A stretch of 62,330 nt of DNA, filler included, from Sphacelaria rigidula (lineage: Eukaryota), in assembly GCA_964200075.2 (NCBI GenBank). It is 8 parts of 8 records of this genome, joined end to end, with 100 filler letters (N's around TTAATTAATTAA, not from the genome) between each part and the next. Parts side by side here need not be neighbours in the genome. Positions count along the whole stretch, not along the records: positions 39,021 to 46,724 come from CAXNAA020013740.1; 7 more parts are not named here. One strand, given 5' to 3'. The position numbers were made by a program, and so were the translations under genes. This document shows, in pieces, positions 7,705 through 56,056 of the stretch. Below the pieces are notes generated by a model that was given only the letters and a program-made list of their open reading frames with translations, was not told where the DNA came from and ran no database searches. The first letter of the stretch is position 1; each line of letters starts with the position of its first letter.

Positions 7705-7804
7705 NNNNNNNNNNNNNNNNNNNNNNNNNNNNNNNNNNNNNNNNNNNNTTAATTAATTAANNNNNNNNNNNNNNNNNNNNNNNNNNNNNNNNNNNNNNNN
7801 NNNN
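7705..7804. other. Artificial contig linker (44 N + TTAATTAATTAA + 44 N)
   Basis: The same 100-bp structure recurs at 15509-15608, 23313-23412, 31117-31216, 38921-39020, 46725-46824 and 54528-54627. TTAATTAATTAA gives stops in all six frames. Confidence 0.98.
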
Positions 7805-15450: not shown

Positions 15451-15789
15451 TTGTGTGTGTTTTGGTTGGATGGGGGGGGGGGGGGGGGGGGGTTTTTTTT
15501 TTTTTTTTNNNNNNNNNNNNNNNNNNNNNNNNNNNNNNNNNNNNNNNNNNNNTTAATTAATTAANNNNNNNNNNNNNNNNNNNNNNNNNNNNNNNNNNNN
15601 NNNNNNNNGACGCCAACCCCATCAGGATCCGCCCCTACAAAGCCGGGACGGAGCACGCCGGGTTCTCGCCGGAAGGGGAGGAGACATAGCAGCCCGAAGC
15701 AAATAGACAAAGACCAACGCAGAAACGGGAAGAACAACCAAGCAAGGGAAAGTAGAAGTAAAAGCGACGGAGAGAGAACAGTAAACAAC

Positions 15790-22894: not shown

Positions 22895-23512
22895 ACTCGC
22901 CAACGAAAATAAGATAAATACATGGGGCTGTGAACTGGCTGCTGTGGCCAGTCAAGTTTAAACTGGCCGCGCCAGCGGGCAGTACATCGATTTTACGATT
23001 AACTGCGAAACAATCGGCGGGTCGCGGCGAAGCCCGCGAGCCGTCAACGCCCCCCCCCCCGGCTGGTGAGGGGGCCCGGCCGGAGCGCTGCCGGAGGCGA
23101 GGAAAATTGCGTCATTTGGCTTGTTTTTCCTTCAAAAATGTGGAAAATTGTAGAAAATGTGACCCCCCACATTGAGGAGCTAAAAGTTTTAGATGACACA
23201 GGAGTGCCCAAAACAATACTCCGAGACCTTGTGTACCCCCCCCCCCCCCCCCGAAACCCCCGACACGAAAAAGAGGCGTAACAAAAGAAAAAAAAAAAAA
23301 AGAAAAAAAAAANNNNNNNNNNNNNNNNNNNNNNNNNNNNNNNNNNNNNNNNNNNNTTAATTAATTAANNNNNNNNNNNNNNNNNNNNNNNNNNNNNNNN
23401 NNNNNNNNNNNNCCCCCCCCTTTAGCACACTCCCTGGCTCACATCTGCTGCTCCCCCCCCCCCCCCACCCCCCCCCCCCCCCCCCCCCGTCTGTCCTGTG
23501 CCGTTACACCAG

Positions 23513-30800: not shown

Positions 30801-31216
30801 CGTGACGCTGGCCCTGACCTAAACGCGTGGACAGCTCTTGCGCTGGTGAACGTAGATCTGGATTGGCCTGCACTTTTTCTTTTTCTTTGTCACATTTTGG
30901 GCCTCCCACCTTCCTCGGGGACGGGCCCGTGGTCTCAAGGGCTCAAGGGATCACCCCATTCATCCCTGGTCATTCAGCCCATGGTGAGACACCCATGAGG
31001 CAGCGTAAAAGCCGTGGTTGTCTCTGGAAGTGGTAATATCAGACAATAAAGCAACTCATTAGAGGCTGTCATCCAAATGCAAGATAGTCAGTACGCTTCG
31101 GGCCGAACAGTCTTAGNNNNNNNNNNNNNNNNNNNNNNNNNNNNNNNNNNNNNNNNNNNNTTAATTAATTAANNNNNNNNNNNNNNNNNNNNNNNNNNNN
31201 NNNNNNNNNNNNNNNN

Positions 31217-34535: not shown

Positions 34536-37162
34536 TTCTCTTTCTGCCTCGGCGTTGCAACACGGTGTAGGACTACACAACTACTGTCTGCTGTCCTTGG
34601 ATGCGAAACGACCCGAGGCAAATGCTTTGTGTCATTTTCCATTTTCAAGTCAGCCCAGCTTCAGCTTTGTCTGTGTACTGGCGGGGCTGTTTGGGGGTTG
34701 GTGTGCGGAGAGCTGTGCCAAAACTAGGCGTTATGACCTTGGTGGAGAGGGTGAGAAGATATTCCCTCGTAGTTCGTAGGCACTAGGATTAGTTGCAGCG
34801 GGTATCGACCGTCAGTTGTGCTTCTGTAGTCAGCCGCCCAGGAGAGTATCTCGGCTCTCGACCTTTTCTGTCTCGATCTCTGATGGCCGGCTATTATAGT
34901 GCTGCGGTTAACCGTCGTCTGCGTGTGTTGCTGGTCGCCATGTGGTCGTCGTGTCTCGGGGTCAGAAGAGGGCGCTGGCGAGCCTGAGTTATGATTTACA
35001 TTCGCTCAGTCGAAATACGATATTTGAGCGTTAGTTTTATTGCACTGCTCTTCAATTTACTCTTGTAGCGCCGCACACTTTTCTGGAAAGGCCTTCCCGT
35101 CTCGATCAACCTTAGCATAACTGACACGTGATTGCTGTACGAGTTCACTAAACTCCAGTGTATATAGTGGTGCAATTCAAGGACCACTTACAACGGTGTG
35201 CTCTGCGCTGTTGTACTATACTGCGCCCTGGTTTGCAACGCGCCGCCTGTTGGCTGTACACACCATCCATTGAGCGATGGACGTCACTCACTATGGAGCA
35301 TGTTGTCAGCCGCTGAGCCCCAGCAAAAAAATGCAGAGCAAACGCACCGACCAGCTTTCTCTGGCTGCGATTACTTCCGTCTCTCCTATAATAGTCGTCT
35401 ATACAGATCGTATGAGGTGTGCAATTTGAAAGCACGTGTACCAATGCAGTTGCTGTGCCGTCAGCACAACAGCAACGACAGTGGCAGCCGCACTGTGCGG
35501 TGCAGTACGTTTACGGTAGAGTAGTGCAAACAATATAGGCAATATAGCAGTGTCATACAGCAATACAGATAATTGGCACCGCAAGAGCACACACAATCCG
35601 GGGAAATTCTCCATCTTTCCCACGATGCTGTTGTGAAAGACATGAGTCCCGCCAGTACCGTACCCTGTTCAGAGGGCGGTACTATTCAGTCCAGCGCCAC
35701 GAACGCGCTGGCGAAGGGCAAACAGCGCTTTGCATGCCATATTTCTACACGGTGCACTATACTGTACGTACCGTTGAGGCAAACGTTGCCCGCAAAAGAT
35801 CAACTTTCATGCGCGACGATCTAGTCCAAAAAAGTAATCTCGTCTGTCTCATCACCTTCGGTGAAATCAATCACCTGACCAAATCTTCACGAGGGGTAAC
35901 GTGGTCAGATCGCCGGGACTGATACCACCCGATATTATTGTTCCGATATTTTCCAGATTTTGGGCTCAAGGTCACGGGTACTTTCAGACCCTTTATATCT
36001 GAAGCATGGTTGTGAACTATTTTAACGCCCGCAACCTGCAGCGAGTCCTAAGAATCCTGTGGAGTACGGCGGTATTGTAGGAGAGAAAGGCCTGGATAAC
36101 GTCCGAGCGCTAAAGCGATCCCGCTCAACTGATTTTTCGACCAAAAGCATCCCCGCAGCCTAGCATGGTTGAGCAGTTGACGAGGGTTTTGTTGCAGTCT
36201 AGCTCGTGTTCTGCAACTCGCATAGCGAGTATGATGGCTGTGCCCTGCACGCCTTCGAATCCTGCTAGCGTTGCCGTTGATACTTTGAAACAGCGGAGAT
36301 GCATGCACTCTTGTAGGGGAGGTACTGGTGGTGTACAAACATCACCGAGAGAGGGTGCGAGCTATGTGCGTAGCAATGACCTGTCGGTCCCAGACCCCCT
36401 TGTTTACATGGATGCGTCGTCTATTCCGCCTAAACAACGATTCCGAACCCCCTGCGGGAATTTTAGGAAAAGCGGCCTTTCGGCTTGTGGTGCATTGACG
36501 CTACGAAGCATAAAGGGGCGTTTGAAGCTGTATTGACGGGTTTCAGCCTGAACTCCTCTGCCGGCATCACGGCGTCATTTGGGTGCAGAGTGCAAGTTCA
36601 TGGGCAGGAGGGCCATTCGGACGAGCCTACTTTAGCTCAAAATGGCATTGCGATTGTTGAGTTATACGGAAAGACGTGAGATTTATCATCTGTACGACCA
36701 TGACTGTCAGCAGCATGCGACATTGTTTTATTACAGTTACCATCGTTCTCGGACATTGCTCATGCTACACAGGGATTTGAACATAATTTCTGACGTCGAC
36801 GTTGGTAGGAAGATGGCGGTTCTAGCCACCTTGACCTTGGCCGGAGTGTCGTTGTGCTTGCCGTGATTTTAAACATCGCCTAGTCACAGACTAAAAAATT
36901 GCCACCATGGTATATTCCTGGTGTAACTGTCTGGGTGCACGCGTGATTCGGCCATATATTTCACCGCCATATCAACAAAATCCCTTGAATTGGATTCAGG
37001 CAAATCTGGAATAAATGCACCGTCATCCCAATCACCTGAACTCAGATCCCCGGAAAAACGCATGCAAGTCAGTCCTGTAAGAGCACATGGCAACACTGGA
37101 CCACAAGATGGAATCGAGCATTAACAATCGTCATCCTCTCCTGCCGCGGCCTCCCGTGCTCG

Positions 37163-38400
37163 ATGTCCTGTGTGATTCTGTCCCTCGAATCTTCCTCACC
37201 ACAGCGGCAGCAGCAGCCGCAAAGAAGCAGCAGCCGCGAAGCAGCCGAGCAGATAAATTTGCTATCCCCGAGATTACGGCCGCCAAGTATGTCGGAAAGA
37301 GGAACCGCCGAATCGGCGGCGGCGGTGACGGCTGGGGTAGACGGCTCTCAGAGGCGTGGGGGCCACGGCAAAGAAACACCGCCGACGGCATCGACAAGCA
37401 ACTGTGGGAAACGGACAAGCAACAGTAGTGCTCCCGTCAGCGGTAACAGTAGCACCAGCAGTAGGTACCAGAAAAGCGGGGCAGTAGCTACGCCGCCGTC
37501 GCTGCCACCACTTACGCGGCGCAGAGGCCAGTTGGACCCGCGCTTCGAAATTCGAACGGACCCTTCCAAACCTCACCGCGGCAGGGGTATCTTTGCAACA
37601 CAGGCCGTGAAGGCCGGGACGAAGGTTATCGTGGCGCGGCAGTCGGCTGCCATACCGAAGGACAAGTACCGAGCGGCGTTCTGCCGGCGGTGCCTGACAC
37701 TGGTGGATAAGAACACGCTCATCAAATGCCGGCGCTGCGAGGATCGCTTCTGTGGCAAAGACTGCGTGATCTCGGCGGCGGGGGAGGGGACCCACGAAGC
37801 CACTTGCGCGTTTTTAGAGAACTTAGACGGTGAAGACGACAGTAGTAGTGGGTACGGTAGTACCGCAGCAGCAGCAGCCGCAGCCGCCGCTGCTGCGGCG
37901 GCTGCGGCGGCTGCGGCGGCAGCGACGCGGGGAGATAAACTACGTGCGAGCTACAACTACAATGGCAATAGCAACGGCAATGCCAATGCCAATGGCGGTA
38001 GCGGGATAAGTAAAGAGGAGAAGAGTCGTCGCGAAGCGCTCAAGGTGTCATTGCTCGTGCAGGCGGAGAACACTTACGCGCCCGCCGCAACAGAAACAGA
38101 GCTGCTGCGGCTCGCGATGGAGTGCCTCGCGAGGAGAAGGGCGGGTCTGTGCAACGAGCAAGAATGGGACGAAATCTTAGACCTCCAAGATGGGGAGGAG
38201 CTTGTTGGTATCGACGCCGCCGCGGTTTCTGCCGGAGAGGGGTCGACGGGGGACGAGCGGGAGGCTAGTCCGCCCGGGGATGTCGTTGGTTGCGGGAGTG
38301 CTGCAAAGTTAGACCCGGTGTTGCTTCGAGCTGCTCAGGCGAAGCTGAAGGGTGGAAAGGTGCAGGTTTCGACCGAGGAAATTCAGATGGTTTACGCAAG
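37163..38400 (+). CDS. SET and MYND domain (SMYD-type) lysine methyltransferase, large exon
   Basis: SET-N motif HRGRGIFATQAVKAGT, then MYND ligands CRRC...CRRC...FCGKDC...HEATC. Ends at AAG|GTAAGC. The SET-C half lies beyond the contig; the start codon is uncertain. Confidence 0.88.
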
Positions 38401-41400
38401 GTAAGCTCTTGTTGTAACCGTACCCTCCTCAGGTTGGAGGGCGCGTACTACGTGTTGCACGGTGTTAAGGATATCGTGTTTTGTTGGATGTTCGACGATT
38501 TGTATGGGACGATATCTTGACGCGCACGCTGATGACGTGGAGGGTACCGAACAGTGTTTGACGGAGAAGCCATAAAGGCTGCGTGGGCAGTGCTGGCGGG
38601 TCTGGGTCATGTTTGTGACACGCGATGAGGCTGAGCGACCACAGCCTACCTATGCCTACCGCGTACCAGAGTACATCCTTATGTCAGTCCATCGTATTTG
38701 AACGGTTGAGCAAAGAACACGGAAGCTGCAACAAAGCTGCACGGGCTTTATCGAAAACATGGCCACCACGCCCCCGTGGTATAACTGGTACATCTGACTT
38801 CAGTTCGGTCCGGAGAGAGCGGGTTCGATTCCCGGTAGATGTATTTTTTTTTTTCTTGACAAGAAGTTGACTTCTGTCGTTGAAGCGTGAAGATATGAGT
38901 AGCAAGAGAAGGTCATATGANNNNNNNNNNNNNNNNNNNNNNNNNNNNNNNNNNNNNNNNNNNNTTAATTAATTAANNNNNNNNNNNNNNNNNNNNNNNN
39001 NNNNNNNNNNNNNNNNNNNNAAGTGTGGGGAAAGCACTGTTTTAGGCTTGAGCCTCATCTCGAAGTTAAACCTCAATTCTCACAATTTGTTGTTGTATCA
39101 TAATCAGATTGCTGAGTAAATACCGCGGACCGGCACCGGTATACACTTGACGAAGCAAGCAGTGGTAGCTAGAGTCGTATGTGTGCGCCTGACATGGTGG
39201 TGCAGGTAGAGGACACATATATATGCAAGTGGTGGGCATATGGCGGACCGGCGTATACGGTCAAACGGTGATCGTATTTGCTGCGTTCGTGTGGTCGAAG
39301 GTATGCTGGACCTGGTTTTCTGCAGAGGACTGCGGTCGGTATGAGCGACCAAACAGTACCCACATGCATGCATATGGCGTCCTAACTTTACATGCAAGGA
39401 AGAAACTCGGTGATTTTATGTATACCCTTTAGGCGTGTTCAACACGCTGGGTGGGTATATGGAACACGTGTAGAAGTAGTGACAAGGTTAATTCAGAGTA
39501 TGTGCCATTCATTTTAGATTAACAGGCAGGGGAAGATCGAACGCGGTTGTCGGTTTGACTTCACGTGGTTGTCGAGTTTGCTGAACATCGGCGAGACCGC
39601 GCTCGTGGCATGCAGGGTATGGGCAGCGGCAGGCTCCGTGTACGGGGTTAGTGGAAGCTTGCCAAATTCGGTGACGTGCGTCCCTGTGTGCATCGTTTTC
39701 CGCTTTTAGTCTGCCTTCACGGAGATACTGCGGATATTCGGCCCCTTACATTCTACGACACATACATGTCGTTTCGCCCAGCCGATACTATTAACATATT
39801 CGTGAGATTCAGAGCGTAATATCAGATTCCGAGTGGATGCTCTAGCGTTCCTAACATGCAACGTTTTTTTTACTATTTTTGCTTGAGCACACGTCCTGTG
39901 CATGCAGCTACCGTACAGTACCCCACCCGAGGAATACGGCGGTCTGGTTGGTGAAATACCGCACTAAGAATATTTACCCCTGGGGGGGGGGGGGATTTTC
40001 GGCCTGAAACTGTTATGGGGGTGAATGAAGCCCTTACCGACCAAAATTCCGGGGTCCACGAAAAATAATGAATGCGGACGGATATTGAAGACGTATTGAA
40101 GACGTCATAGACTGGTCGGGCCTGTGCCGAACCTCTCCCAAATCTCTGCCGAACCTCTGCCGAAAATGACACACGCTCCATCCCAAGTTACCCAGGTTTA
40201 GTATGCGACAGATGCAATTTTTTTCATCGCAATCATCTCGAGACAGGAAGCACAGCGGCCTCTGGAATTCCACAGCCCCCCAGCACAGACGCTAGACCTA
40301 TACAGCAACGCAAGCAGATTTGCTCCGTTCGCCACAGGGGATCCAAAAAGTCCCAGAAGGTTGCAGGAAACGCGTTTTTCAGAACATTTTGTGCTTGGTG
40401 CAGCGATTTCTGAAGTGCTGGGCACGCGCACGGAAATCTGTCGCCACACTGAACAGTTCCGGTGTATGGCAAGCGCACGCATCAAATCGCAATCCAATCC
40501 TGCCTCGTTGCCTCATGTTTTATCTACAAGCAGCTCTCTCACTCAGTACAGCCGCAGGGCAGCCATAGGAGCAGAGCGTAGTGATGGCCCAGGGTAGACC
40601 ACGGCAAGGACAGTAACTTATTAGATAGGGCGACGCGGCCTACCGCCGCGGCTGAACAGTTCTAACTAATGACAACAGCAGACGCGATAACAACGCGTCA
40701 CGGAATCCAGGGTCTACGAGCAGACCCGCACAGTGTATATCTTGCAACGCCTCTGAGCTTCCATCACACTAGCCCATCCTAGACGAGTCCTCATGCAGGT
40801 AAATTACATCTTGGCACAATGTAATTACGCCGAGGAATTTCGTAATTCAACGAGAAAGAGCTCTTCTACTCTACACTGGTACAAAAGCATGAAGCGAAGA
40901 AAAAATAATCTTTCCCACACCTCTAGGAGGCGAGCATCGCTGCGATCCGACACAACATCAAACGTTCAATCCACGAAAAGGAAAACGTTGAATCCACGTG
41001 ACACTCACGCACTTATGTTGAACAAGACAACACACAAGCAAGTCCATCTACAAAGTAAAGCACTAAATGGTACGCACGCGTAGGTTTCATCTACTGTACA
41101 AACGGAACAAGGATGGAATGCCAGACAATCCGGGAAGAGGGGAGGGAAAACGCAGTTGCGGCATAGCATCGCGGCAACTGCTCTGGTCGGACGCAGATCC
41201 AAGTGAGCTACACGTTTTTGTTCGACTCCGTCCCAACACATCCGTCACGTATAGCGAGAGTGGTACCCCGCTCGTTTCCGTGGCAGGGCTTTTGAAGTAT
41301 CAAACCTGCCTTGCAAAAGGCGTGCAGCGTGAAGTACAATGCGATTGGGGGGGGGGGGAACTACGGAGCAACAGGGAAATAACATTGGGGATGCAGCCGA

Positions 41401-42284
41401 AGTTCACGGTTGGTGTGCCCGAAGTGCGGAGTCGAAATCCTGCGGGGGTGAGCACTAGCCCATCCAAGACGACACTCAGGGTAAAAAGTCGCAGGTCGTT
41501 GGTCAGAACTTTTCGTTCAGTGCGGCGGATCAGCTATCGCGTGTACGAAGTACACGAGTCGCTAGCAATACTCAATGAGTAGACAAGACAAGAGCCCAAC
41601 AACGGACTCGAGCAATCAGTGACTGTAACCCTTGATGTGTCCAAGGTATGTTTTATGATCTCACGTGTAGGTTTAGTATATCTCTTCGTTAAATGCTTGG
41701 TCTCAACCTTCTGCTTATCCAATCTCTCACGTTCAATCTCTCACGTTCACTCAATAATCTCACCGATGCTTAGCTCCCTTGCAGAGAGCTTGGTGGCAAG
41801 TAGTAGTGTGTAACGAGGGGAGATGCTTGGGGGTCGACAGACACGCACCCCCTCGCTTTTATACCCGTTTATACTCGTATCGACTAACTCTGAACAGACC
41901 TGCATTCAAGATATCCTGAACCAATAACTGTCTAGACTCATTGACGGGTCTGAGCGTGATAACAGGCTAATATGCTAGACTAATATGCTCCTTCATGACA
42001 CTAACCCACCCAGTCGAACCTTTATTGCAGCTGCGAGAATAGATCCTCAAAAGCAGCGAAAGCTGAGGGGTTTCTTTGTTCGTAAAGTCATCAGCGGCTA
42101 ATGCTAATAAAAAACGCCTAAGGGAATACTCCCGACCCACTCCCACACCTCAGAGTAAAGAAAGCAGAAACTAAGCTGCTTAAAGCGCGGAAGCACAAAA
42201 CGGCTGCCGCGTGCTAGAAACCAACGAAGAAGCACACAATGCTTCGGCGTCCTAGCAAAACGAGGAAAAAGTCAGGGGGGGTAC

Positions 42285-42428
42285 AACAGGGAGCAAGCTG
42301 CGCCAGCTTCGACGTGGGGGATTCCAAAGAGACAGCAGGGAGCAAGCAACGCCAGCTTCGACCTGGGGGATTCCAAAGGGACCACAGGGAGCAAGCTACG
42401 CCAGCTTCGACCTGGGGGATTCCAAAGG
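42285..42428 (+). repeat. Tandem repeat of about 50 bp, three copies, in the Gypsy 3' non-coding region
   Basis: CAGGGAGCAAGC..CGCCAGCTTCGAC(C/G)TGGGGGATTCCAAAG occurs three times. Confidence 0.85.
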
Positions 42429-42769
42429 AAATGATGGCTACAGCAGTAACAGGCGACCAACGTAAGTTGGTCGGAAGTAAGAAAAGCGAATCTGAAGAGT
42501 TGGTAATCCAACAAGATCTGGCCCCTTCGAAAAAGAGGGGATAGCAGAGCTCCAGTAGTCGTAGGTGGCGAGCGGCTCCTGTCCGATCATGGTCCGGGGG
42601 AAGGTGATCCTGTCGTGGATGTCGTAGAGCAGGGTCCTAGTGGAAAAAAGGGAGGGCATGAGACAAAATAATAGAAGAAAGATGACGGTGGGGGGCGTAG
42701 TTCACAGCGGTGCGTGCGCGTCGTGGGTGTGGTCGATGTTGCGCTGGAGACCGTGGCGAAGTCCTGAGG

Positions 42770-44600
42770 CGCTGAAGACACCAAGATCCGCGTGGTGCAG
42801 ATGGATTGGTGGTGTATAGCGCAGGCCGGAGCTTACGCTGTATGGGTCCCGGGTCATCGATGAAGCGCACGATGCATGTGTTGGGAGACTAGATCAGCGG
42901 AGTGAGTCTGACCCAACCACCAGAGCTTGTCGCTGCCTTTGAACCACAGGTAGGAGCCCTCGGGTAGTGTTTTCTGGTTCGCGAAGAACTTTGCTTTACA
43001 AATCTTGGTGGGAACCAGTTCGTAGTCATCGGCGACAAAGCATAGGCCTTGGTCGCGGTGCAGTTTGCGGGCTGCTGTGCCACGACGCATGTTGCGGTAT
43101 CTCTTGTTGTGAGCAAGATGCTGATGTTGGGGTTGCGTCTTGTATATGAGGATTGCACGGCGGTGCAGTTGAAGGTCGGATTCGCCTTCCCAAGAAGCTC
43201 TCCGAAGACCTGGCCAGTGGGTCTTATACATGACAGCAATTTTTTCACCTCGACCACGAGTGAATTGATGGCCGGATATGGCGGAAATCGTGAGGCGGAG
43301 GGGCTGTTCCATTATGTCATCAGTGGTGACGTGGTAGGGCGGAGACTTAGTCGAATAAGTGTTGAGAACGTACTGTGTAAGTCCTGCAGGTAGGTGTTTG
43401 GGCAGGTCACTTGTATCATGCGGGTTCGTGCATGGTTTGAACCTGTGCACGGAGACGCGGGGTTTGGTGTCTTTGCCCTGAGGGTCGCGAGGCAGATCGA
43501 AATAGAAGAGTTTGTCGCCAACGGGTTTATTATCCGGTGAGGATGGCGAGGGACCGACTTTCAGAATCTTGAAAAATCCTGTCCAATTGAGGGACAATTT
43601 TGCCTTTAAAATGTTTTCGTCGGCTGCCTTGCTGGTACCTTGGCGGATGGTCGATAGACTGTTGTAGACCCGAACCCAATCACTAACTTTCCAGTTGGGG
43701 CGTTTGTGCATTAGGTTGTAGAGAGCAGTGTTAGATCGCTCCAGGCGCGAGGCGTTGATAGTGTGTTGTTCGCGCACGAGAGTAAACGCTTTTCGTTGTC
43801 GTGAATGTGCTAGCTCATGATAGGATATCTGATCCTGATCCAAGCCTTGGTGACCATTGGACGTGTGTCTTTCAAACACGGTGATGGGTAGCCGGGGGTA
43901 ACGTCCAAGATGAAGTTAATTCGGAGAAAGGCCTGTGGCGGCACTAAACGAGTTATTGTAGGACAACATAATGTGCGAGAGATGTAGGTCCCAGAGCATT
44001 TGGGCCATGGTGTGATTAACTCGTTCGGTACCACTGTTGCCGTTAGGGTGGTAGGCGCTCGTGGCAATGTTTTGGATGCCCAGAAGCTTGTAAAGCCCCG
44101 CAGAAAGATCTGAGCAAGATTGCTGACCATTGTCTGAAAAAAGCCGTTTCGGGCAACCGTAGTGCTTGATGTAGTCGTGGACCAATATGTCGGCCGTTCC
44201 TGCTGCAGTGAAATCTGCAGCGGTTACCGCGTACATGGACGCGTGGCGGCTGAAGCGGTCCGTGAGGAGTAAGACGTAGCTGTTGCCGCGACCTGTGGGC
44301 GGTAGAGGGCCGAAATAGTCAAAGGACACAAGGTGGCCGGGCGCGTTGGGGAGTCCCATAGAGAGGACTGGCCAGCGGACTGTCTACCGTGAAGTCTTTC
44401 GAGCTTGGCATTTGAAGCATCGCCGAATCCAACAGCGGGTGGAAATTGCCATGCCAACCCACCAGTAAAAGCGTTCCAAGAACGCTAGGGTGCGGGTGAC
44501 GCCAAGATGACATGGCAAGTCTGTGTAACAGCCTTTCAGGACCCAGGGGCGCATTAATAACGGAACGTATATGCGCGTGGGTTCGTCATCGAGTGTTCAT
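42770..44600 (-). pseudogene. Frameshifted integrase, then chromodomain (about 43295-43140), then PWWP/Tudor-like module (about 42967-42770)
   Basis: Chromo-like ISAISGHQFTRGRGEKIAVMYKTHWPGLRRASWEGESDL. Then GSYLWFKGSDKLWWLGQ..., and after a frameshift near 42885, TCIVRFIDDPGPI...GSWCLQ. Confidence 0.8.
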
Positions 44601-46935
44601 GCGTGGCGTCCCGTGGTGGAGGTAGTGATTGCGCCTGCTAAAGGCGTGGGTCCACGCACGAGTGATTGCACACCTTTGTCCGTGGTAAAAATCGTGCCTT
44701 TACGCACGAGTTCATATATCTCGGAGATATCTGGTGGTGGCAGTGTGCCAACAGGAGCCAAACGTTCGGGCGGGGAAGGAACTCGGCAGTCGAGCTGTAA
44801 GTAACGGGTGGCTGCGCGACAAAGGGGTTCTACGTTTTGGTCGCGAGCCCAGTCACGGTGAGAGTAGCTGGCGAGAAACTCGTGCAGTTGGCCTTCCGCT
44901 GGGGAGCCGACCAAACATGGTGAGGTAGGTAACGGGGGAACAGGTGACGGGGCAGAAATGCCTACGTTAATCTCTGCCTCGGGGGCAGGGGTTGTCGGTG
45001 TTGCCGTCATATGCGGCGGAGTTGAAGTTGTGCGCGGCGAAGAAGGTCCGCGGCGCGTGTTGTTTGTTGCAGTAGTGACTGCGGAGCGTTCCGTGTCAGT
45101 CCGTAGGGCCGGCGCTGCGTGGCTCGCAGAACTTGCAACTGTCATCGGTTGCGGCGGGGCACTTGGGGGGTTGGTGCGGGCGGCAGACCGAGAGCGCGTG
45201 TTGTCTGAAATCAGGTGGATAACCGAGGGTGTCTCCGTGAGAAGCTTGGCGCAAGTACCAAAGGTCCGGGAATCAAGGGGAGGGAAAACGCAGTTGCGGC
45301 ATAGCATCGCGGCAACTGCTCTGGTCGGACGCAGATCCAAGTGAGCTCCACGTCTTTGTTCGACTCCGTCCCGACACATCTGTCGCGTATAGCGAGAGTG
45401 GCACCCCGCTCGTTTCCGTGGCAGGGCTTTTGAAGTATCAAACCTACCTTGCAAAAGGCGTGCAGCGTGAAGTACAATGCGATGGGGGGGGGGGGGGGAA
45501 CTAAGGAGCAACAGGGNNNNNNNNNGGTGGTGGGGAGGGTGTATTGGACGAAACAAGTGGCACGAGGGAGGAGCGGGCAGGAGGGAAAATGAGTGGGGGG
45601 GGGGGGGGGGGGGGAACTACGGAGCAACAGGCAGATAAAATTGGGGATGCAGCCGAAGTTCACGGTTGGTGTGCCCGAAGTGCGCAGTCGAAATCCTGCG
45701 GGGGTGAGCACTAGCGCATCCAAGACGACACCCAGGGTAAAAAGTCGCAGGTCGTTGGTCAGAACTTTTCGTTCAGTGCGGCGGATCAGCTATCGCGTGT
45801 GATGAGCAAAACTCGATGTCAATTTGAAAAAAAAATCAATTCGTCAGGACGCAATACCCAACTCAAAGCAATCGTCCGGCGGAGATACGGCCTACAACAA
45901 GGGCGGTATGATTGGTCATTCCCTGGGGATACTGGACCACGAGCTACGGAACGACACAGGAGAACACACCCGTGTCGCCAGCTGACCAGGCTGCGCCACG
46001 GGATATGGACAGAACAAACAAACGAGCACATCCAGATGAAGTGTCGAAATGCAGTAACTCACTTCAATCTGAAACAGTCGTCGGGCAGAAATACGGCCTA
46101 CAAGAAGGGCGGCATCGTTAGCAGTACACGGTGTAACCAAGGACCCGTGCAACGAGACGATGTAAGGGAATACTCCCGTGCGGCGAGCTCTCTTGGCTGG
46201 CGGCAGGGGGTTCAGCAGTGACAACAAACACGCGCAGAAAACTAATCATCAAAATTACAAACATGCGGGGAAGCTGGACTAAATAAATCAACAGTCCTCT
46301 CATCGCGTAAAGAAACCTCGAAGACAAGAAGAAAAAAAAACACTGGATGCTCAGGGGACACGGACAAAGATGCGACAGCGACAAGAAAGATGACTACGGG
46401 TACTAGAAACAGTCACCAAGAGGGCGAATTCAGCACAAAGAAATACGGCACCACAACCTGTGGGGGGCTACAATGCAGGGCGGCGGGCCCATGGGTACGG
46501 GCCAAATTATATAACGCGTGCACTAATTTCAAGTAATTTAATTCAAATTATTACCAGTCCCTCTACATTATATAACGCATGATATAACGCAAACTTGATT
46601 TTAGTATTGACTCCGTCACACTCGTGATCACGGGCCTTCTGGTCCCCGCAGCCACTGCAGCCACAGCAGCCACAGTACAGGACTGTACTGTGCTGCGGAA
46701 AGATGGTATCCAGGACACCAACGGNNNNNNNNNNNNNNNNNNNNNNNNNNNNNNNNNNNNNNNNNNNNTTAATTAATTAANNNNNNNNNNNNNNNNNNNN
46801 NNNNNNNNNNNNNNNNNNNNNNNNGTCGTCTGCACGTTATCTCTCTACCGAGCCCAACTGTAGCATGATCGTGAGCATTGAAATACCCACACGATTAAAC
46901 GTCCATAACGATACAGACTTATGGGACAGAGGAAG

Positions 46936-46964
<29 letters not shown>

Positions 46965-46974
<10 letters not shown>

Positions 46975-47900
46975 TTCGGTTCGGCCCATCTTTCGGTTCG
47001 GCCTATCTTCTGGCTCATCCTATTTTGTGGCCCATTCCATATTTCGGGTCGGATTATATTTTCGGTTGGTCTATTTCTTGGTTCGGCCCATGTTTCGGTT
47101 CGGCCTATCTTCTGGCTCATCCTATTTTGTGGTCCATTCCATATTTCGGGCCGGATTATATTTTCGGTTCGGTCTACGCATTGATTGAGCCTATACCTTG
47201 GTTCCAGCTATGTTTTCGGTGAGGTTTATATTTCCGGTCAGGCTATAATTCGGTTCGGCCCATGTTTCGGTTTGGTCTATGTTTCGGCTCGGCCCATGTT
47301 TCGGCTCCGTTCATGTTCCGGTTCGGTTTATATTCCGGTTCGGTCTACGCTCTCGTTCGGCCTATGTTTAGGTTCGGTCTACGTATTGGTTGGGCTTGTG
47401 TTTCGGTTTTACCTAGGTTATCGGTTCGGTCCATGTTTAGGTTCAGACTACATTTCGGTTCGGCGTATGTTTCGGCTTTGTCTATGTTCCGGTTCGGTCT
47501 AAGGTTCGGTTCCGTCCATGTTTCGGTTCCGTCTTTATTTCTGTTGGTTCATGTTTCGGTTTGGTCTACCTTTCCGGTTCGGCCATTTTTTTAAATGAGT
47601 GTGTTCCGGTTAGATCTATAATTCGATTCAGTTCATGTTTCGGTTCGGCATATATTTCGATTCGGTCCATATTCCGGTTCGGTCTATGTCTCGGTTCGGT
47701 GTACATTCCGGTTCGGCCTATGTTTTGATTCATCTATTTCAGTTCGGTTCATGCTTGTGTTCTGTCTATATTTCGGTTCGGCATGTTTTTGGTTCGGCCT
47801 ATGATTCGGTTCGGTCCGTGTTTCGGCTCGATCCATGTGTTTTGTTCGGCCTATTTGTCGATTCGATCCACGTTTCCGTCCGGCCCATGTTTTGATTCGG

Positions 47901-47939
<39 letters not shown>

Positions 47940-49372
47940 TCGGTTCGGTTTAGATCCCGGCTCGGTCCATGTTTCGATACTGTCCATGTCTCGTTTTGGC
48001 TCATATTTCGGTTCGGTCGGCGTATTAGTTCGGTCCATGTTTTCGTCCAGCCTATGTTTCGGTTCGGTCTATATTTCCCATGGGCCAAGTTTCCGGTTCA
48101 GTCCATGTTCCGGGTCGGTCTACGTTTCGCTTCTGCTCAAGTTTCGATTTGGCCTTTGTTTTGGTTTGGCGCTCGTTTAGGTTCGGTCCAAGGTTTCGTC
48201 CGGCATGTGCTTAGGTTTGACCTTCACGTCCGGTTCGGCATAAGTTTCGGTTCGGCATATATTCAGATTGTATGCTTCGGTTCAGCCTATTTTCGGCTCA
48301 GCCCATGTCTTAGTTTGGTCTACCTGCCGGCTCAGTCGATTTGATGGGCGTTCCATCTTGTCGGTTCGGCCCATGTTTCGGTTCGGCCTATTTTTTCGAT
48401 TCGCTCCGTGTTTCGGTTTTGCCTGTTCAAGTTTCGGTTTGGCATTTGTTTCGGTTCGGTCCGAGGTTCCATCCGGTCCATGTTTCGGTTCGGGCTTCAT
48501 TTCCGGCTCGGTTTATGTCTCGGTTCGGCATATATTTGGCTTGGACTATTTTCTCGGTTCGAATCATGTGCTCTTCTGGCCTGTTTCGGTTTGGTCTACA
48601 TTTCAGTTCAACCTATGATTTGGTTTGGTCTATTTTCCGGCTCTCTCGATCTTATGCTTTGCTGCATCTGTCGGTTTCGGTTCGGCCTATTTTTCGCTTC
48701 TGTTCAAGTTTCGGTTCGTTGTATGTTTAATTCGGTCAAAGATTCCGTCCGGTCTATGTTTCGGTTCGGTCTTCACTCCCGATTGGCCCATGTCTCTTTG
48801 TACATGTTTCGGTTCGGACTGTGATTCGATTCCGCCAATATTTCGGTTCGATCCATGTTTCTGTTCGGTCTATGTTTCGGTTCGGCACATCTCCCCGCCC
48901 TGCCGATTTTTTGGTTCGCTTCATTGTCAGGTCTATATTTCGGTTCGTCCCATTTATCTCTCTATATATGCCTCGTTTCGGACAATGTCTCGATTCGTTC
49001 CATCTTTGGTCTCGTCCTGTTGTTCCCATGCATATGTTTCGGTTTGGTCTATGTTTTCGTCCGGCTTATTTTTTTATGTGTATTTGTTTCGGTTCGGTCT
49101 GTCGTTTGTTATGATATTTTTCTATATGTATGTGTTTCGGTTCGGTTCATATTTGGGTCCGGTCCGTGTTTCACTCCGGCTCACGTTTCTGTTCGGCCTA
49201 TTATATCACATGTATATATATGTATATATATATATGTTTCCGTCCGGTCTATATTCCGGCTCGGTCGATGTTTCGTCTGGTCTATTTTTCGGTTCGGTCT
49301 GTATTTCGGCTCGGTCTGTCTTCCTGTTCGACCTGTATTTCGAGTCTCAATTTCGGTGAGCACTTCGATACA

Positions 49373-51404: not shown

Positions 51405-53679
51405 CTGGTGATGTCATCCCATCCCGGCAAAAACACCAGCACCGCCCCATCCTCGTAGGCCGACCTGCAAACATACCGCAGCAGGGCCTCCACCAGACCA
51501 TAGTCCACCGCTTCGTCGTCGAACGCGAACTGGTACCTGACATCAACAGATGTGTAATGGTGTAAATAGTTGCAGAGTATGGGGGAAAAAAAAAAACAGA
51601 ATAACGTCGTGAAAAAAAATATTTACTGATGTTTAGTGTTCGTGTACCATAGCGTTCGCTGAAAAGGGGCAACTGTTTTCTCAATTAGGAAAAAATGTAC
51701 GACAAGAATGCATATATATATGGAGAGAAACTGGTGAAGACGGCGGCTACACATATGCGCTGGGTCATGGACTAGTGGTAGCACCAACACACAGTATTTT
51801 GTGTCTCAACAGCCAGAAGAATATGAAAATACACGGAATACCACAGCACACGAAACTCTCAACTGTTGCCACCACAGTGTTATTCCTTTTCGACAATCTG
51901 GAGGCGATTTCATGAAGAAACATATTCTACGACGCGGGGGTTACATTTGAAACGGTCATGCTCCGCAGAGTGAAATGCGCTGAGGTTAGAGGGAGACACG
52001 TCCTTCGCAGAGAGGTGTCCACATCAGCACGGGAAGCTGGCGATAGAGACGACGTCGAGGGCTGATGCCCCTAGGTGATAAAGGATGTCACCACGAAGTG
52101 AGGAAGCGCTCAATACACAAAGTGTATCTGTTTACATGAATGCAGGACAACATCGGCACTGCGTGCTGTGCTTGGGGCTGGCGGTACCGTACTGAATGTA
52201 CGACGCGAACCACGCCTCGAAGAGGGGATTCTACAAATTGGGGATGGAATTTTTATTGAGGATGAGAACCTGGAGAATCAAAATCTTTGTATCCACACCA
52301 AATCTTCGAAATTTGGTTCCATTGTTTCACTTGCTGGTAGCTATTGCTATTGTCAACCACTACACGCCATGTAAATTTGGATTTCGATAACCGAAATGTT
52401 GGGGTCCTAGGCGAAAGCCCAATTTTGGGGAATTATGGTGATCCGATCGGACTCCAAAATTGGTTTTTCACCTACTAATAGGACCCCAACATTTCGGTTA
52501 TCGAAATCCAAATTTGTATGACGTGTATTAGTTGTCAATAGCTACCAGCACGTGAAAAAATGGAACCACATGTCGAAGATTTGGTGTGGATACGAAGGTT
52601 TTAATTCTTCCGCTTCTCATCCTCAATAAAAAATCCATCCCCAATTTGTAAAACCCCGTGTTCTCGGCAGCGCTGGAATACCCGCGATCCGTCCGTGAAA
52701 ATTACAAACTGCTCTCTGCCGTACACCGAGAGCAAGTAAACCGGCTCAAAAGTCCGTCAAGGGTCGATGAAGTCGATGTTGAAGAAAGCTCGAGATATTC
52801 ACGTGCGAGCCGTATCCACCAAAACTGTTCTGTAGGTTGATTCTAATTGAAGAGAAGAGCAATCGCCCCCATCGTGGTCAGTCTGTCTTGATGTCGTTTA
52901 CGGAGTTTATGGTACTTGTCTGTAAGGGGACGTCGCTCCCTGCTCGAACAGCTTCACAGCGGCCCTTGGCAGAAGACACTGTTGTCTTTGACTCGGCTGT
53001 ACGGCCACGTCTTGCGCGAAACGGCGTATAAACCCCAACGGCAACAAACACGAATATATGACGAAGCCTGAATGATGCGTGTCACACTGTGTTACAGCGA
53101 GCACCAAACCATAAGCAGGTCCAGTTAAACGACTATGCTGGCAAGATCTGCCGCTGCTGCCTCCGCGCCGGTGTTGTATTGTAGAAAAAAACGCCCTTTC
53201 CGTCACTTGAACTCCATGCCATTAATAGCAGGTCCTACGAGAACCAAATTCTCCAAGACAATCTACAAATGATTATCGAAAACAAAACAAAAGCCGAGAG
53301 TAGGTACAGGATGGACTCATTTCTTGTGCAGAAAAGTAAGTCTTTTTTTTTTTGCATTTGCATCGTCTGCGTTGTATCTTTCTAAAAACCCGAATATATA
53401 GCATCACGACAGGAACCCTCAACCCTCGTATCCAAACGATCAAATACCAACAACCACACAGACTCATGGTACAGAGAAGTACACGAATATATACTACACA
53501 CAACGTGCAACAATCTCGTCCCTCTAACCTGGTGAGAAGTTCCTCCGCTCTTCCCGAGGTAGCCGACGCTCGTTCCGCGCGGAACGTTCCGCGACCATCC
53601 CACTTCTGACCCATGGCCAGCGCGTCGTGCAGTCCACCGTCCATGTCATCCTCAGCCGCCAGGACAGCATCGTCGTCAT
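51405..53679 (-). CDS. DEAH/RHA RNA helicase (YTHDC2/DHX36-like), two exons (53679-53529, 51536-51405)
   Basis: Phase-2 join reads ...RAEELLTR|YQFAFDDEAVDYGLVEALLRYVCRSAYEDGAVLVFLPGWDDITR. GAVLVFLPGWDDI is helicase motif IV of this subfamily. Splice sites are canonical. The motif exon is in a frame the ORF track does not list. Confidence 0.9.
52222..52660. mobile_element. Palindromic fold-back MITE, copy 2 (inside the helicase intron)
   Basis: Same arms as 27395-27834, centre GATCCGATCGGA at about 52445. Ends GGGGATTCTACAAATTGGGG and CCCCAATTTGTAAAACCCCGTG. Confidence 0.9.
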
Positions 53680-55016
53680 CTTCAGGTTCGGAGAATATGG
53701 GGTGGTTGGAAGAGTGGACAGGGGGTAAAGACTTCACCGTACAAGACTCAATCACAAGTAAAGAGGCATATCCATACACAAAAAATCACAACTAGGTTTG
53801 CGCGAGTTGAGGAACCAACCATTCAGTGCATGCGCAGGGAGGAGGAAGGAGGGGGGGGGGGGGGAACCTATGATCTCGCATACCGTAGTCATACGACCAA
53901 TGACCTCGCATCCCTACAAAGTCGGGACGGAGCACGCTGGGTTTTCGCCGGACCAGGCTCGCAATAACCAAGCGCGAAACGCCGTGATGTGTTCCGCGAG
54001 TTGCAGGGAGGGTGAGCTATATCGTGCTAAGATTGTTCGGCCCGAAGCGTATTAATGGGAGGGGGGGCAGGGGCTACAAAAGTACAGATCTCTCTCTCTA
54101 TATATATATAGATATATATAGATATAGATATATTCGTCGAACGTTTAACCAATCTCCTTTCTCGGGGCTGGTCCGTTGCCTCGAATAGTCCATATTTTTC
54201 TCCGGTATGTACGTGCCTGACATTCCGGCATCGCGAATTCATTGGATCCGAACATCTCACACGTCGGACAGCTCACGAGCTACCAAATATAACTGATGGA
54301 AGATGACTCTACTAATAATATCCCTTGTCCAAGAATGCCAAATACGTAACAGCGGGATCCGGAAAGCCAAAGCTCTACCTCCGCGTCACTTCGCGAGCTC
54401 GGCATCCAGCGTTGTAGGAAGCAAATATGGGGGGGGGGGGGGGGGGGGGGGGGAAAAGTGCCCTGGTCGAGGAGCGGAAAAAGTGCATTATAAGGGGAAT
54501 TTAAAACTCGGTTTGGGTGATTTTGGTNNNNNNNNNNNNNNNNNNNNNNNNNNNNNNNNNNNNNNNNNNNNTTAATTAATTAANNNNNNNNNNNNNNNNN
54601 NNNNNNNNNNNNNNNNNNNNNNNNNNNTGCTCGGCGAGTCGCTTGAAGGGTGAGCTGCATCCTGCCAAGACTGTTCGACCCGAAGCCTACTGACTATCTT
54701 GCATTTGAATGACAGCCTCCAATGAGTTGCTTTATTTTCTGGTACCGCAACTTCCAGAGACAGCCACGTCTTTTACACTGCCTCATGGGTGTCTCGGGGG
54801 GGTCGGGGATGTGGGGCTCGTAAACTGCACAGTGATTGAAAACTTGGAGGACGAAAATTTCGGTACAGAATCAACTGCTTTTGAGCTCAAAAATGCACTC
54901 TTGTTTGTGCTGTAACAGAGCAGGATATCCTCGGCCAGATCAAACCACGGCGCCTTGTGTTCGTCCTCTTCTTTGCCGTCAAGCGGATTTCCTCGAACGT
55001 ATCGCTCAGCGTTTCA

Positions 55017-55630: not shown

Positions 55631-56056
55631 CATGGGGTTTTACAAATTGGGGATGGAATTTTTATTGGGGATGAAAACCCGGAGACTTCAAATCCTCGTA
55701 TCCACACCAAATCTTCGAACTAGGCTTCCATTTCTTCGCTTGCTGGTAGCTGTTGACAACTACTACACGCCACACAAATTTGGATTCCGATAATCGAATG
55801 TCGGGGTCATTGATGAAAAACTAATTTTGGCGTCCGATCGGATCACCTGAATCCCCCAAAATTGGTTTTTGACCTAGGAACCCGACATTTCGATGATCGA
55901 AATCCAAATTTGAATGGCGTGCAATAGTTGTCAATAGCTACTAGCAGGTAAAGGAACGGAACCATGTTTCGAAGATTTGGTGTGGATACGAAGATTTTAC
56001 TTCTCCGGGTTCTCATCCACGATAAATAATCCATCCTCAACTTGTAAAATCCCGTG
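55631..56056. mobile_element. Palindromic fold-back MITE, copy 3
   Basis: CATGGGGTTTTACAAATTGGGG ... CAACTTGTAAAATCCCGTG, centre TCCGATCGGA at about 55838. Confidence 0.9.

Follow-up and report, generated by a model that had tools for sequence, protein, structure and literature searches.

The integrases of a family of Ty3/Gypsy retrotransposons in brown algae are predicted to carry a composite C-terminal module, in which a chromodomain fold is followed by an Arg-rich helix, a five-stranded Tudor/Spindlin-like barrel and a short conserved end. [quoted passage not shown] We propose that in active copies the module would tether the integration complex to nucleosomes with a particular mark, biasing the sites where the element lands. 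The Tudor-like barrel would be the likelier reader of a methyl mark, and the degenerate chromodomain and the basic helix may add contacts with peptide, DNA or nucleosome. That the window copy comes from a family whose chromo-helix-Tudor module acts as a chromatin tether for integration seems to us moderately probable, the tether role being read from the logic of chromodomain-bearing integrases.

The sequence that is certainly contiguous around the element spans 39,021-46,724, with N blocks on either side; what lies beyond them may not adjoin it. Translation recovers one minus-strand frame from about 45,616 to 42,857, interrupted by three in-frame stops (44,597-44,599; 44,384-44,386; 43,916-43,918), after the last of which the frame stays open for 353 codons (43915 to 42857); all features of the element lie on this strand. 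The first recognizable part is a remnant of the low-complexity linker between RNase H and integrase together with the N-terminal extension of the integrase (44600..45205). It reads DNTRSRSAARTNPP...EGQLHEFLASYSHRDWARDQ...RYLQL, was identified by translation against the full-length Pol proteins P0166 and P0176, which contain the same region, and gives no match in Pfam. There follow two domains that clear their Pfam cut-offs, the integrase H2C2 zinc finger (44387..44596; PF17921 Integrase_H2C2, E 6.4e-12, score 45.9 bits, cut-off 25.5) and the integrase catalytic core, rve (43919..44383; PF00665, E 3e-9, score 37.5 bits, cut-off 32.6). The integrase C-terminal region comes next (43320..43915; from translation and relatives), with a GPY/F-type motif, assigned by eye and not by a tool, which reads LSLNWTGFFKIL in the window copy and LSLNWTGPFKIL in relatives. 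Since reverse transcriptase (RT), RNase H and protease are all absent upstream of the zinc finger, the copy is 5'-truncated. Besides H2C2 and rve, a Pfam search of the window open reading frame (ORF) at E<=1 returns nothing bearing on the tail, and tblastn finds no second copy of the element within the 62,330 nt.

The tail itself begins with the chromo-like domain (43135..43303), LRLTISAISGHQ...YKTHWPGL...ASWEGESDLQLHRRAILIYK, delimited by alignment to residues 73-130 of the relative P0003 and by the fold of that protein; the frame at 43,303-43,135 contains ISGHQFTRGRGEKIAVMYKTHWPGLRRASWEGESDLQLHRRAILIYK. The Arg-rich linker (42965..43134) reads NKRYRNMRRGTAARKLHRDQGLCFVADDYELVP... and also NKRYRNMRRGTAARKLHRDQG..., and was placed by the P0003 model and a conserved MR.GAA.REL.R motif. 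The Tudor-like SH3 barrel (42772..42964; from the models of P0150 and P0003) is split between two frames, GSYLWFKGSDKLWWLGQ... and then ...CIVRFIDDPGPIQRKLRPALYTTNPSAPRGSWCLQ: the first-frame piece GSYLWFKGSDKLWWLGQTHSADLVS occupies 42,958-42,884, and the second frame gives SPNTCIVRFIDDPGPIQRKLRPALYTTNPSAPRGSWCLQ. An original prediction, made from the sequence of the window, had placed a single frameshift near 42885. A frame change does lie at about 42,889-42,897, but three-frame translation reveals a second one, at about 42,765-42,775, that had been missed. In the third frame the conserved C-terminal end (42702..42771; GLQRNIDHT...) is read as ...SASGLRHGLQRNIDHTHDAHAPL / ...GLQRNIDHTHDAHAPL up to a stop at 42,702-42,704, and because it corresponds to the family end G-[VL]-[LQ]-R-N-x-D-x-S-R-G, the coding tail extends some 65 bases past 42,770, the lower bound originally given. 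The verdict that this copy is dead holds, with three in-frame stops, two frame changes and no RT. Its barrel keeps nearly all the conserved residues, the exceptions being a Cys at Y/F70 and a Leu at the conserved His after C-L-Q.

The tail is shared by a large set of proteins. A phmmer search of 1.84 billion representative sequences with the 154-aa in-frame tail piece returned 232 proteins at E<=1e-3, 66 of them at E<=1e-10 and one at E<=1e-30. These matches, together with the translation, bear out the predicted continuation of the frame past the chromodomain via a basic linker into GSYLWFKGSDKLWWLGQ...CIVRFIDD. The two tail pieces that the window copy holds in different frames form one continuous sequence in intact relatives (e.g. 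...WWLGQTHSADLVATDTHIVRFID in P0005 and P0035). When longer proteins were sought by indexed words, the window copy's own tail gave no match. A profile of relatives, built from 18 natural sub-stretches of the barrel alone, succeeded: of the 7,999 candidates that were scored, 97 proteins reached E<=1e-3. Precomputed annotation assigns rve to 18 of these 97, and RVT_1, RNase H, H2C2 and rve together to four (P0166, P0175, P0176 and P0179; 1,372-1,660 residues), of which P0176 represents 197 members clustered at 90% identity. The tail is in frame in Pol proteins of 1,618-1,660 aa that have RT, RNase H and integrase, and a repeated Pfam run on P0166 and P0176 gives the order RVT_1, RT_RNaseH, Integrase_H2C2, rve, then the tail. 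The family thus has the RT-RNase H-integrase order of Ty3/Gypsy elements (Metaviridae), which the window copy, without RT and RNase H, does not. Chromo (PF00385), Tudor or PWWP is precomputed for none of the 97. The only organisms named among the matches are the brown algae Pylaiella littoralis and S. rigidula, one further labelled row being a 'hypothetical protein', and the family is widespread in brown-alga-type genomes.

Is this tail under constraint? We compared P0166, domain by domain, with the divergent Pol proteins P0176, P0179, P0164 and P0157, taking identity as a proxy for purifying selection and not as a ratio of non-synonymous to synonymous substitution rates (dN/dS). The chromo part is 58-63% and the barrel 47-55% identical, against 69% for RT, 61-65% for the integrase core and 52-57% for the integrase C-terminal region; the RNase H-to-integrase linker and the helix linker both stand at 36-38%. 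Within the latter linker the MR.GAA.REL.R motif is conserved in the relatives. In an alignment of 149 rows, both domains are represented to 80% or more in 20; the others are fragments (84 with the chromo part only, 23 with the barrel only and 22 with neither), whose counts say nothing about architecture.

Some of the matching proteins are unusual. P0102 (626 aa) and P0112 (373 aa) have no integrase, their reader tail being preceded by N-terminal sequence of unrelated kind; the former has the chromo-Tudor module, and in the latter the match begins in the linker (residues 237-299) with no chromo part evident. They could be chimeric gene models over fragments of transposable elements (TEs) or domesticated copies. 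P0059 and P0143 both end in ...LYTSPSPRD...SRMPSSA, presumably translated sequencing adaptor from untrimmed short contigs.

Structural models were made with AlphaFold of two natural relatives, P0003 and P0150, and not of the broken window copy. In P0003 (273 aa; chromo part and tail) residues 70-260 are modelled with a predicted local distance difference test score (pLDDT) >87, and the predicted template modelling score (pTM) is 0.70. The chromo fold comprises three strands (78-88, 94-102 and 109-112) and a capping helix (113-128). Residues 73-130 align with the Chp1 chromodomain at Z 7.2 and a root-mean-square deviation (rmsd) of 1.4 Å over 53 residues of a 55-residue chain, and with the chromodomains of HP1 and Polycomb at Z 6.9 and 6.2; the MPP8 chromodomain is a weak sequence lead (E 0.8, profile against PDB sequences). 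Cage positions were mapped through the MPP8 alignment and the chromo-box motif as given in PMC3350952. The central cage Trp, equivalent to W45 of HP1 and part of Y-E-T-H-W-x-G-L, is kept (W in 108 of 126 rows). On the aligned sequences the chromo part is degenerate, one of the three cage aromatics (Y24, W45 and Y48 of HP1) being kept.

Beyond the chromo fold, the P0003 model shows a linker helix (139-156) and a short strand (166-168) joining the barrel, again at pLDDT >87. The model of P0150 (123 aa; linker helix and barrel) has a mean pLDDT of 87.6 and a pTM of 0.79, and its barrel consists of five main strands (45-49, 55-63, 70-74, 80-83 and 101-106) with a short extra strand from the linker. 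A Foldseek search of P0150 against PDB has no row at E<=1e-3. Single Tudor domains fill nine of the first ten places, among them PHF1 and PHF19 bound to H3K36me3, TDRD3 and RDM15, and the Tudor rows have E 0.012-0.03, probability 1.00 and rmsd of about 2 Å. When P0150 was compared with 48,161 representatives by VIA-align, with the best 50 rows considered, the RDM15 Tudor (57 residues aligned of a 58-residue chain, rmsd 2.0) and Spindlin-4 both reached Z 6.1, extended Tudors about Z 5 and PWWP Z 4.5; counted by hand, the 50 rows include 31 Royal-family readers and eight KOW domains. Re-alignment within Foldseek's top 1,000 chains puts Spindlin1 repeats first (Z 6.1-6.6, 63-71 residues aligned), and residues 175-258 of P0003 align with chains of Tudor, PWWP and Agenet type at Z 5.0-5.5. 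The sequence leads for this part agree with the fold: the PHF19 Tudor is the best lead for the barrel (E 0.098, profile against PDB sequences), Pfam searches of the tails of 17 relatives give Agenet (0.02), SH3_VIII-1_N (0.005-0.1) and PWWP (0.12) below cut-off, and the ESM Atlas returns Spin/Ssty, Tudor and Agenet clusters at 0.81-0.85, all leads there being below 0.9. The viral structure library BFVD holds no meaningful match. Because small reader domains are covered almost completely and the independent, weak sequence leads agree, a chromo fold followed by a Tudor-type barrel is the best reading of the models, and not a significant sequence-family assignment.

The conserved signature of the barrel consists of the aromatics in W-[YF]-K, W-W and [YF]-x-V-R-F and of an acidic D-D-P-G-P turn. 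Its key columns are W47 (64 of 100 rows), W55 (64 of 79), W56 (55 of 76), G58 (70 of 82), R73 (58 of 72), F74 (50 of 73) and P80 (56 of 62). In the alignment to PHF19, two of the cage positions are taken by aromatics of this signature, the second W in W-W and the F in V-R-F. The conserved W47, Y/F48 and Y/F70, together with the D-D-P-G-P turn, might complete a pocket.

Taken together, the models and the intact relatives sustain the original prediction of two successive modules of Royal-family type on the integrase. It had named the lack of an SH3-like fold, or a segment unconserved or out of frame in intact elements, as what would speak against it; the barrel is predicted, conserved and in frame. 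The label 'PWWP/Tudor-like' survives mainly in its second half, the barrel resembling Tudor and Spindlin domains (Z 6.1-6.6) more closely than a PWWP domain (Z 4.5-5.4, no helical bundle, Pfam in one of 17 relatives). The chromodomain seen in the window copy is upheld by the chromo fold of P0003, but not by Pfam on the window ORF. Conservation of the aromatic cages, proposed as a check, is likewise mixed: the barrel aromatics are conserved and two of four PHF19 positions aromatic, but the chromo cage keeps one of three.

Several observations weigh against a chromatin-reading tether. The window copy itself, with its three stops, two frame changes and missing RT, cannot function. Neither the chromo part nor the barrel reaches threshold with any Pfam or PDB sequence model, the best PDB profile having an E of about 0.1. 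Pfam Chromo is seen in only four of 17 relatives (E 2e-4 to 5e-3), where its 17.1-21.6 bits fall short of the cut-off of 25.1, and is absent on the window ORF at E<=1, so that the label 'chromodomain' rests on relatives and fold. Leu occupies the equivalents of HP1 Y48 (90 of 127 rows) and Y24 (52 of 85 rows), and in the barrel the other two PHF19 cage positions hold Ala/Ser and Pro, leaving only two of four aromatic. Z values of 6-7 are within the range that the tool calls common for small folds, and those below 8 can reflect a common arrangement. SH3-type barrels, moreover, also occur as KOW, Sm and TraI translocation domains (the last at Z 6.0), which are not histone readers.

What else, then, could the barrel be? 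It may be a general SH3-type domain for contact with DNA or nucleosomes or for multimerisation, like the SH3-like C-terminal domain of retroviral integrases, in which case the basic helix would bind DNA and no mark would be read. SH3-type barrels are generic, and non-readers match this one as well (the TraI domain at the Z just given, the Spt5 KOW at Z 4.9); the half-aromatic PHF19 cage, the degenerate chromo cage and the conserved, Arg-rich linker all suit such a role. Yet methyl-lysine or methyl-arginine readers make up 31 of the 50 best VIA rows and nine of the first ten Foldseek rows, the usual integrase C-terminal region with its GPY/F-type motif is already present upstream, and the six conserved aromatics of the barrel would exceed the usual need of a hydrophobic core. 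We consider such a domain a somewhat unlikely explanation. Among the chains that Foldseek lists for the two-domain model are those of Rous sarcoma virus (RSV) integrase, which we rejected because an rmsd of about 20 Å is not a real superposition.

A bolder version of the tether would have the fused chromodomain, helix and Tudor barrel form one bivalent reader. In chromatin without H3K9me and H3K27me, as stated for Ectocarpus (PMC12477816), the chromodomain would have lost its methyl-lysine cage and stayed on as a scaffold or second contact, and the barrel would read a mark found on brown-algal repeats (e.g. H4K20me3 or H3K79me2), thereby steering integration into DNA that is already silenced; we find this version doubtful.

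A true PWWP domain, reading H3K36me together with DNA, appears far less probable still. The stretch F-W-Y-K-x-x-D-x-L-W-W-L-G-K-I does resemble the beta1-beta2 signature of PWWP, Pfam PWWP is found on P0127 at E 0.12, and the PWWP chain 6kco aligns at Z 4.5-5.4. The best PDB sequence match of the tail profile, 2m1h (E 0.12), is a chain that we take to be a PWWP domain. But the conserved W-W pair is flanked by Leu on both sides (L-W-W-L), without the prolines of P-W-W-P, and in the models the barrel is not followed by a helical bundle: strand 4 leads into a helical turn of three residues, a loop and a single further strand (S-W-C-L-Q). Tudor and Spindlin chains outscore PWWP, whose Pfam model stays below cut-off and is seen in a single relative of the 17. 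Finally, that the extension is no domain but meaningless read-through in a decayed copy, as the stops and frame changes in the window might suggest, is hardly credible and is refuted by the 232 tail matches (66 at E<=1e-10) and the 97 found by the barrel profile alone, by a tail that is in frame in Pol proteins of 1,618-1,660 aa and confidently modelled, and by a conservation comparable to that of the catalytic domains.

If the chromatin tether is the right interpretation, how does it relate to known systems? The closest structural counterparts of the barrel, namely PHF1/PHF19, RDM15, TDRD3 and Spindlin1 (Z 5.0-6.6, rmsd 2.0-2.7 Å, 57-69 residues), are cellular proteins without significant sequence similarity to it, and unlike the single Tudor and Spin/Ssty readers it bears a helix at its N-terminus and one more strand at its C-terminus. 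PHF1 and PHF19 read H3K36me3, RDM15 reads H3K4me1, and Spindlin1 reads H3K4me3 and H4K20me3. In lentiviruses the reader reportedly sits on a host protein, LEDGF/p75, that is bound by the integrase. The proposed arrangement resembles the tethering of lentiviral integrase by the PWWP domain of LEDGF/p75 in that a Royal-family barrel would link integrase to marked chromatin, as described for that system (PMC3185499); unlike in LEDGF/p75, the reader here would be part of the integrase polypeptide.

Among retrotransposons, chromodomains are reported to target Gypsy integration, for example in MAGGY (PMC3350952), and in a survey of chromatin evolution PHD and Chromo are given as the domains chiefly fused to TEs (10.1101/2021.11.30.470311). 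Like the chromoviruses (MAGGY), Chronos of oomycetes and ECR-1 of Ectocarpus, as these are described (PMC3350952; PMC5348765; PMC11541908), the family has an integrase C-terminally fused to a chromodomain fold, and shares with them the presumed tethering of integration to marked chromatin. By the same descriptions, those elements end at the chromodomain, whereas some 150 more conserved residues follow here, and MAGGY-type (group I) and ECR-1 chromodomains keep three cage aromatics, whereas this family keeps one. Its Leu, Trp, Leu cage pattern is that given for group II plant chromovirus and 'shadow' chromodomains (PMC3350952). Group II is known, according to that account, only from plant Gypsy elements; the present lineage is of stramenopile type, and its chromodomain is followed by a second reader-like domain.

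The nearest known relative in architecture comes from Ectocarpus. Four Gypsy lineages, all with chromatin-reader domains, are reported in this alga; in three the C-terminal reader is a chromodomain, and in the fourth, Gypsy-10_Ec32, it is a Tudor domain assigned using CDD cd20401 (PMC12477816, Genome Biol 2025). Gypsy-10_Ec32 is called there the first TE reported with a Tudor domain, has a homolog in Tribonema minus, and is given as 11,528 bp long, with LTRs of 636 bp and 'many deletion derivatives'; the lineages with chromodomains are placed outside both chromoviruses and Chronos. The same paper describes Ectocarpus as lacking H3K9me1/2/3 and H3K27me3, with H3K79me2 and H4K20me3 going with repeats and low expression. 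Both Gypsy-10_Ec32, as described, and the present family are brown-alga Ty3/Gypsy elements with a Tudor-type reader at the Pol C-terminus, and the window copy looks like a deletion derivative, as many copies of Gypsy-10_Ec32 are. They differ in that the account gives Gypsy-10_Ec32 a Tudor domain only, and the other three lineages a chromodomain only, unlike the tandem of chromo and Tudor seen here. The published LTRs of 636 bp compare with flanking repeats of 416 and 536 bp in the window; this is a comparison by description only, and the two may be the same family. In the portion of PMC12477816 available to us, neither the text nor the family table describes an element with tandem reader domains, and our literature search brought up no further case of a retrotransposon integrase fused to a Tudor or PWWP domain. 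The claim of an undescribed mechanism in the original prediction is weakened by these reports of reader domains, a C-terminal Tudor included, on all four Ectocarpus Gypsy lineages.

The repeats just mentioned are a pair of direct repeats on the minus strand, identified by blastn self-comparison, that bracket the integrase fragment: a downstream copy of 416 bp (41129..41544) and an upstream copy of 536 bp (45265..45800), 94-97% identical, the latter with an extra stretch of 118 bp that includes 9 N. They may be LTRs of a deletion derivative or an unrelated abundant short repeat. Checked by eye, they are without TG..CA ends or matching 4-bp flanks, and no purine tract precedes the downstream copy; the upstream copy is followed within a few bases by TGGTA..., a candidate primer-binding site. 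Downstream of the pol stop, at a distance of about 270 bp, lies a tandem repeat of 49 bp x 3 (42283..42428; Tandem Repeats Finder, 91% matches, score 250). The region 40.5-46.5 kb contains no tRNA genes.

Elsewhere in the window, N blocks with a central TTAATTAATTAA spacer recur every ~7.8 kb (7705-7804, 15509-15608, 23313-23412, 31117-31216, 38921-39020, 46725-46824 and 54528-54627). A degenerate satellite at 46,960-49,340, weaker to about 51,200, consists of ~99 copies of a unit of 17 bp, with the consensus CTATGTTTCGGTTCGGT and 58% matches, among which (TA)n runs are scattered. An open frame of 454 codons at 37040-38404 (+), in another of the blocks bounded by N, has a poly-Ala run and a Cys-rich stretch, CRRCLTLVDKNTLIKCRRCEDRFCGKDC, and matches no Pfam family at E<=0.01. 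The segments 52214-52668 and 55631-55999, about 3.4 kb apart, share direct and inverted repeats of 120-170 nt that are 83-91% alike, and look like another repeated element.

The interest of these observations lies in the family, the window copy being an ordinary dead fragment. The novelty of a Tudor-bearing Gypsy integrase has been largely overtaken by the Ectocarpus report, as far as its published description goes (PMC12477816), and what may be new is the tandem arrangement of chromo and Tudor parts and its wide conservation. Reader domains fused to integrases show the chromatin states that a mobile element seeks. Since brown algae lack the classical repressive marks, the target of this module would point to the marks of 'safe' chromatin in these organisms. 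Tandem readers on one integrase would extend the known integrase-reader fusions, which comprise chromodomains, PHD fingers and, since 2025, Tudor. Should the fused module indeed act as one bivalent reader, it would be the first case in which a retroelement integrase bears a tandem of two unlike reader folds, and the module would be a natural probe of the brown-algal histone code.

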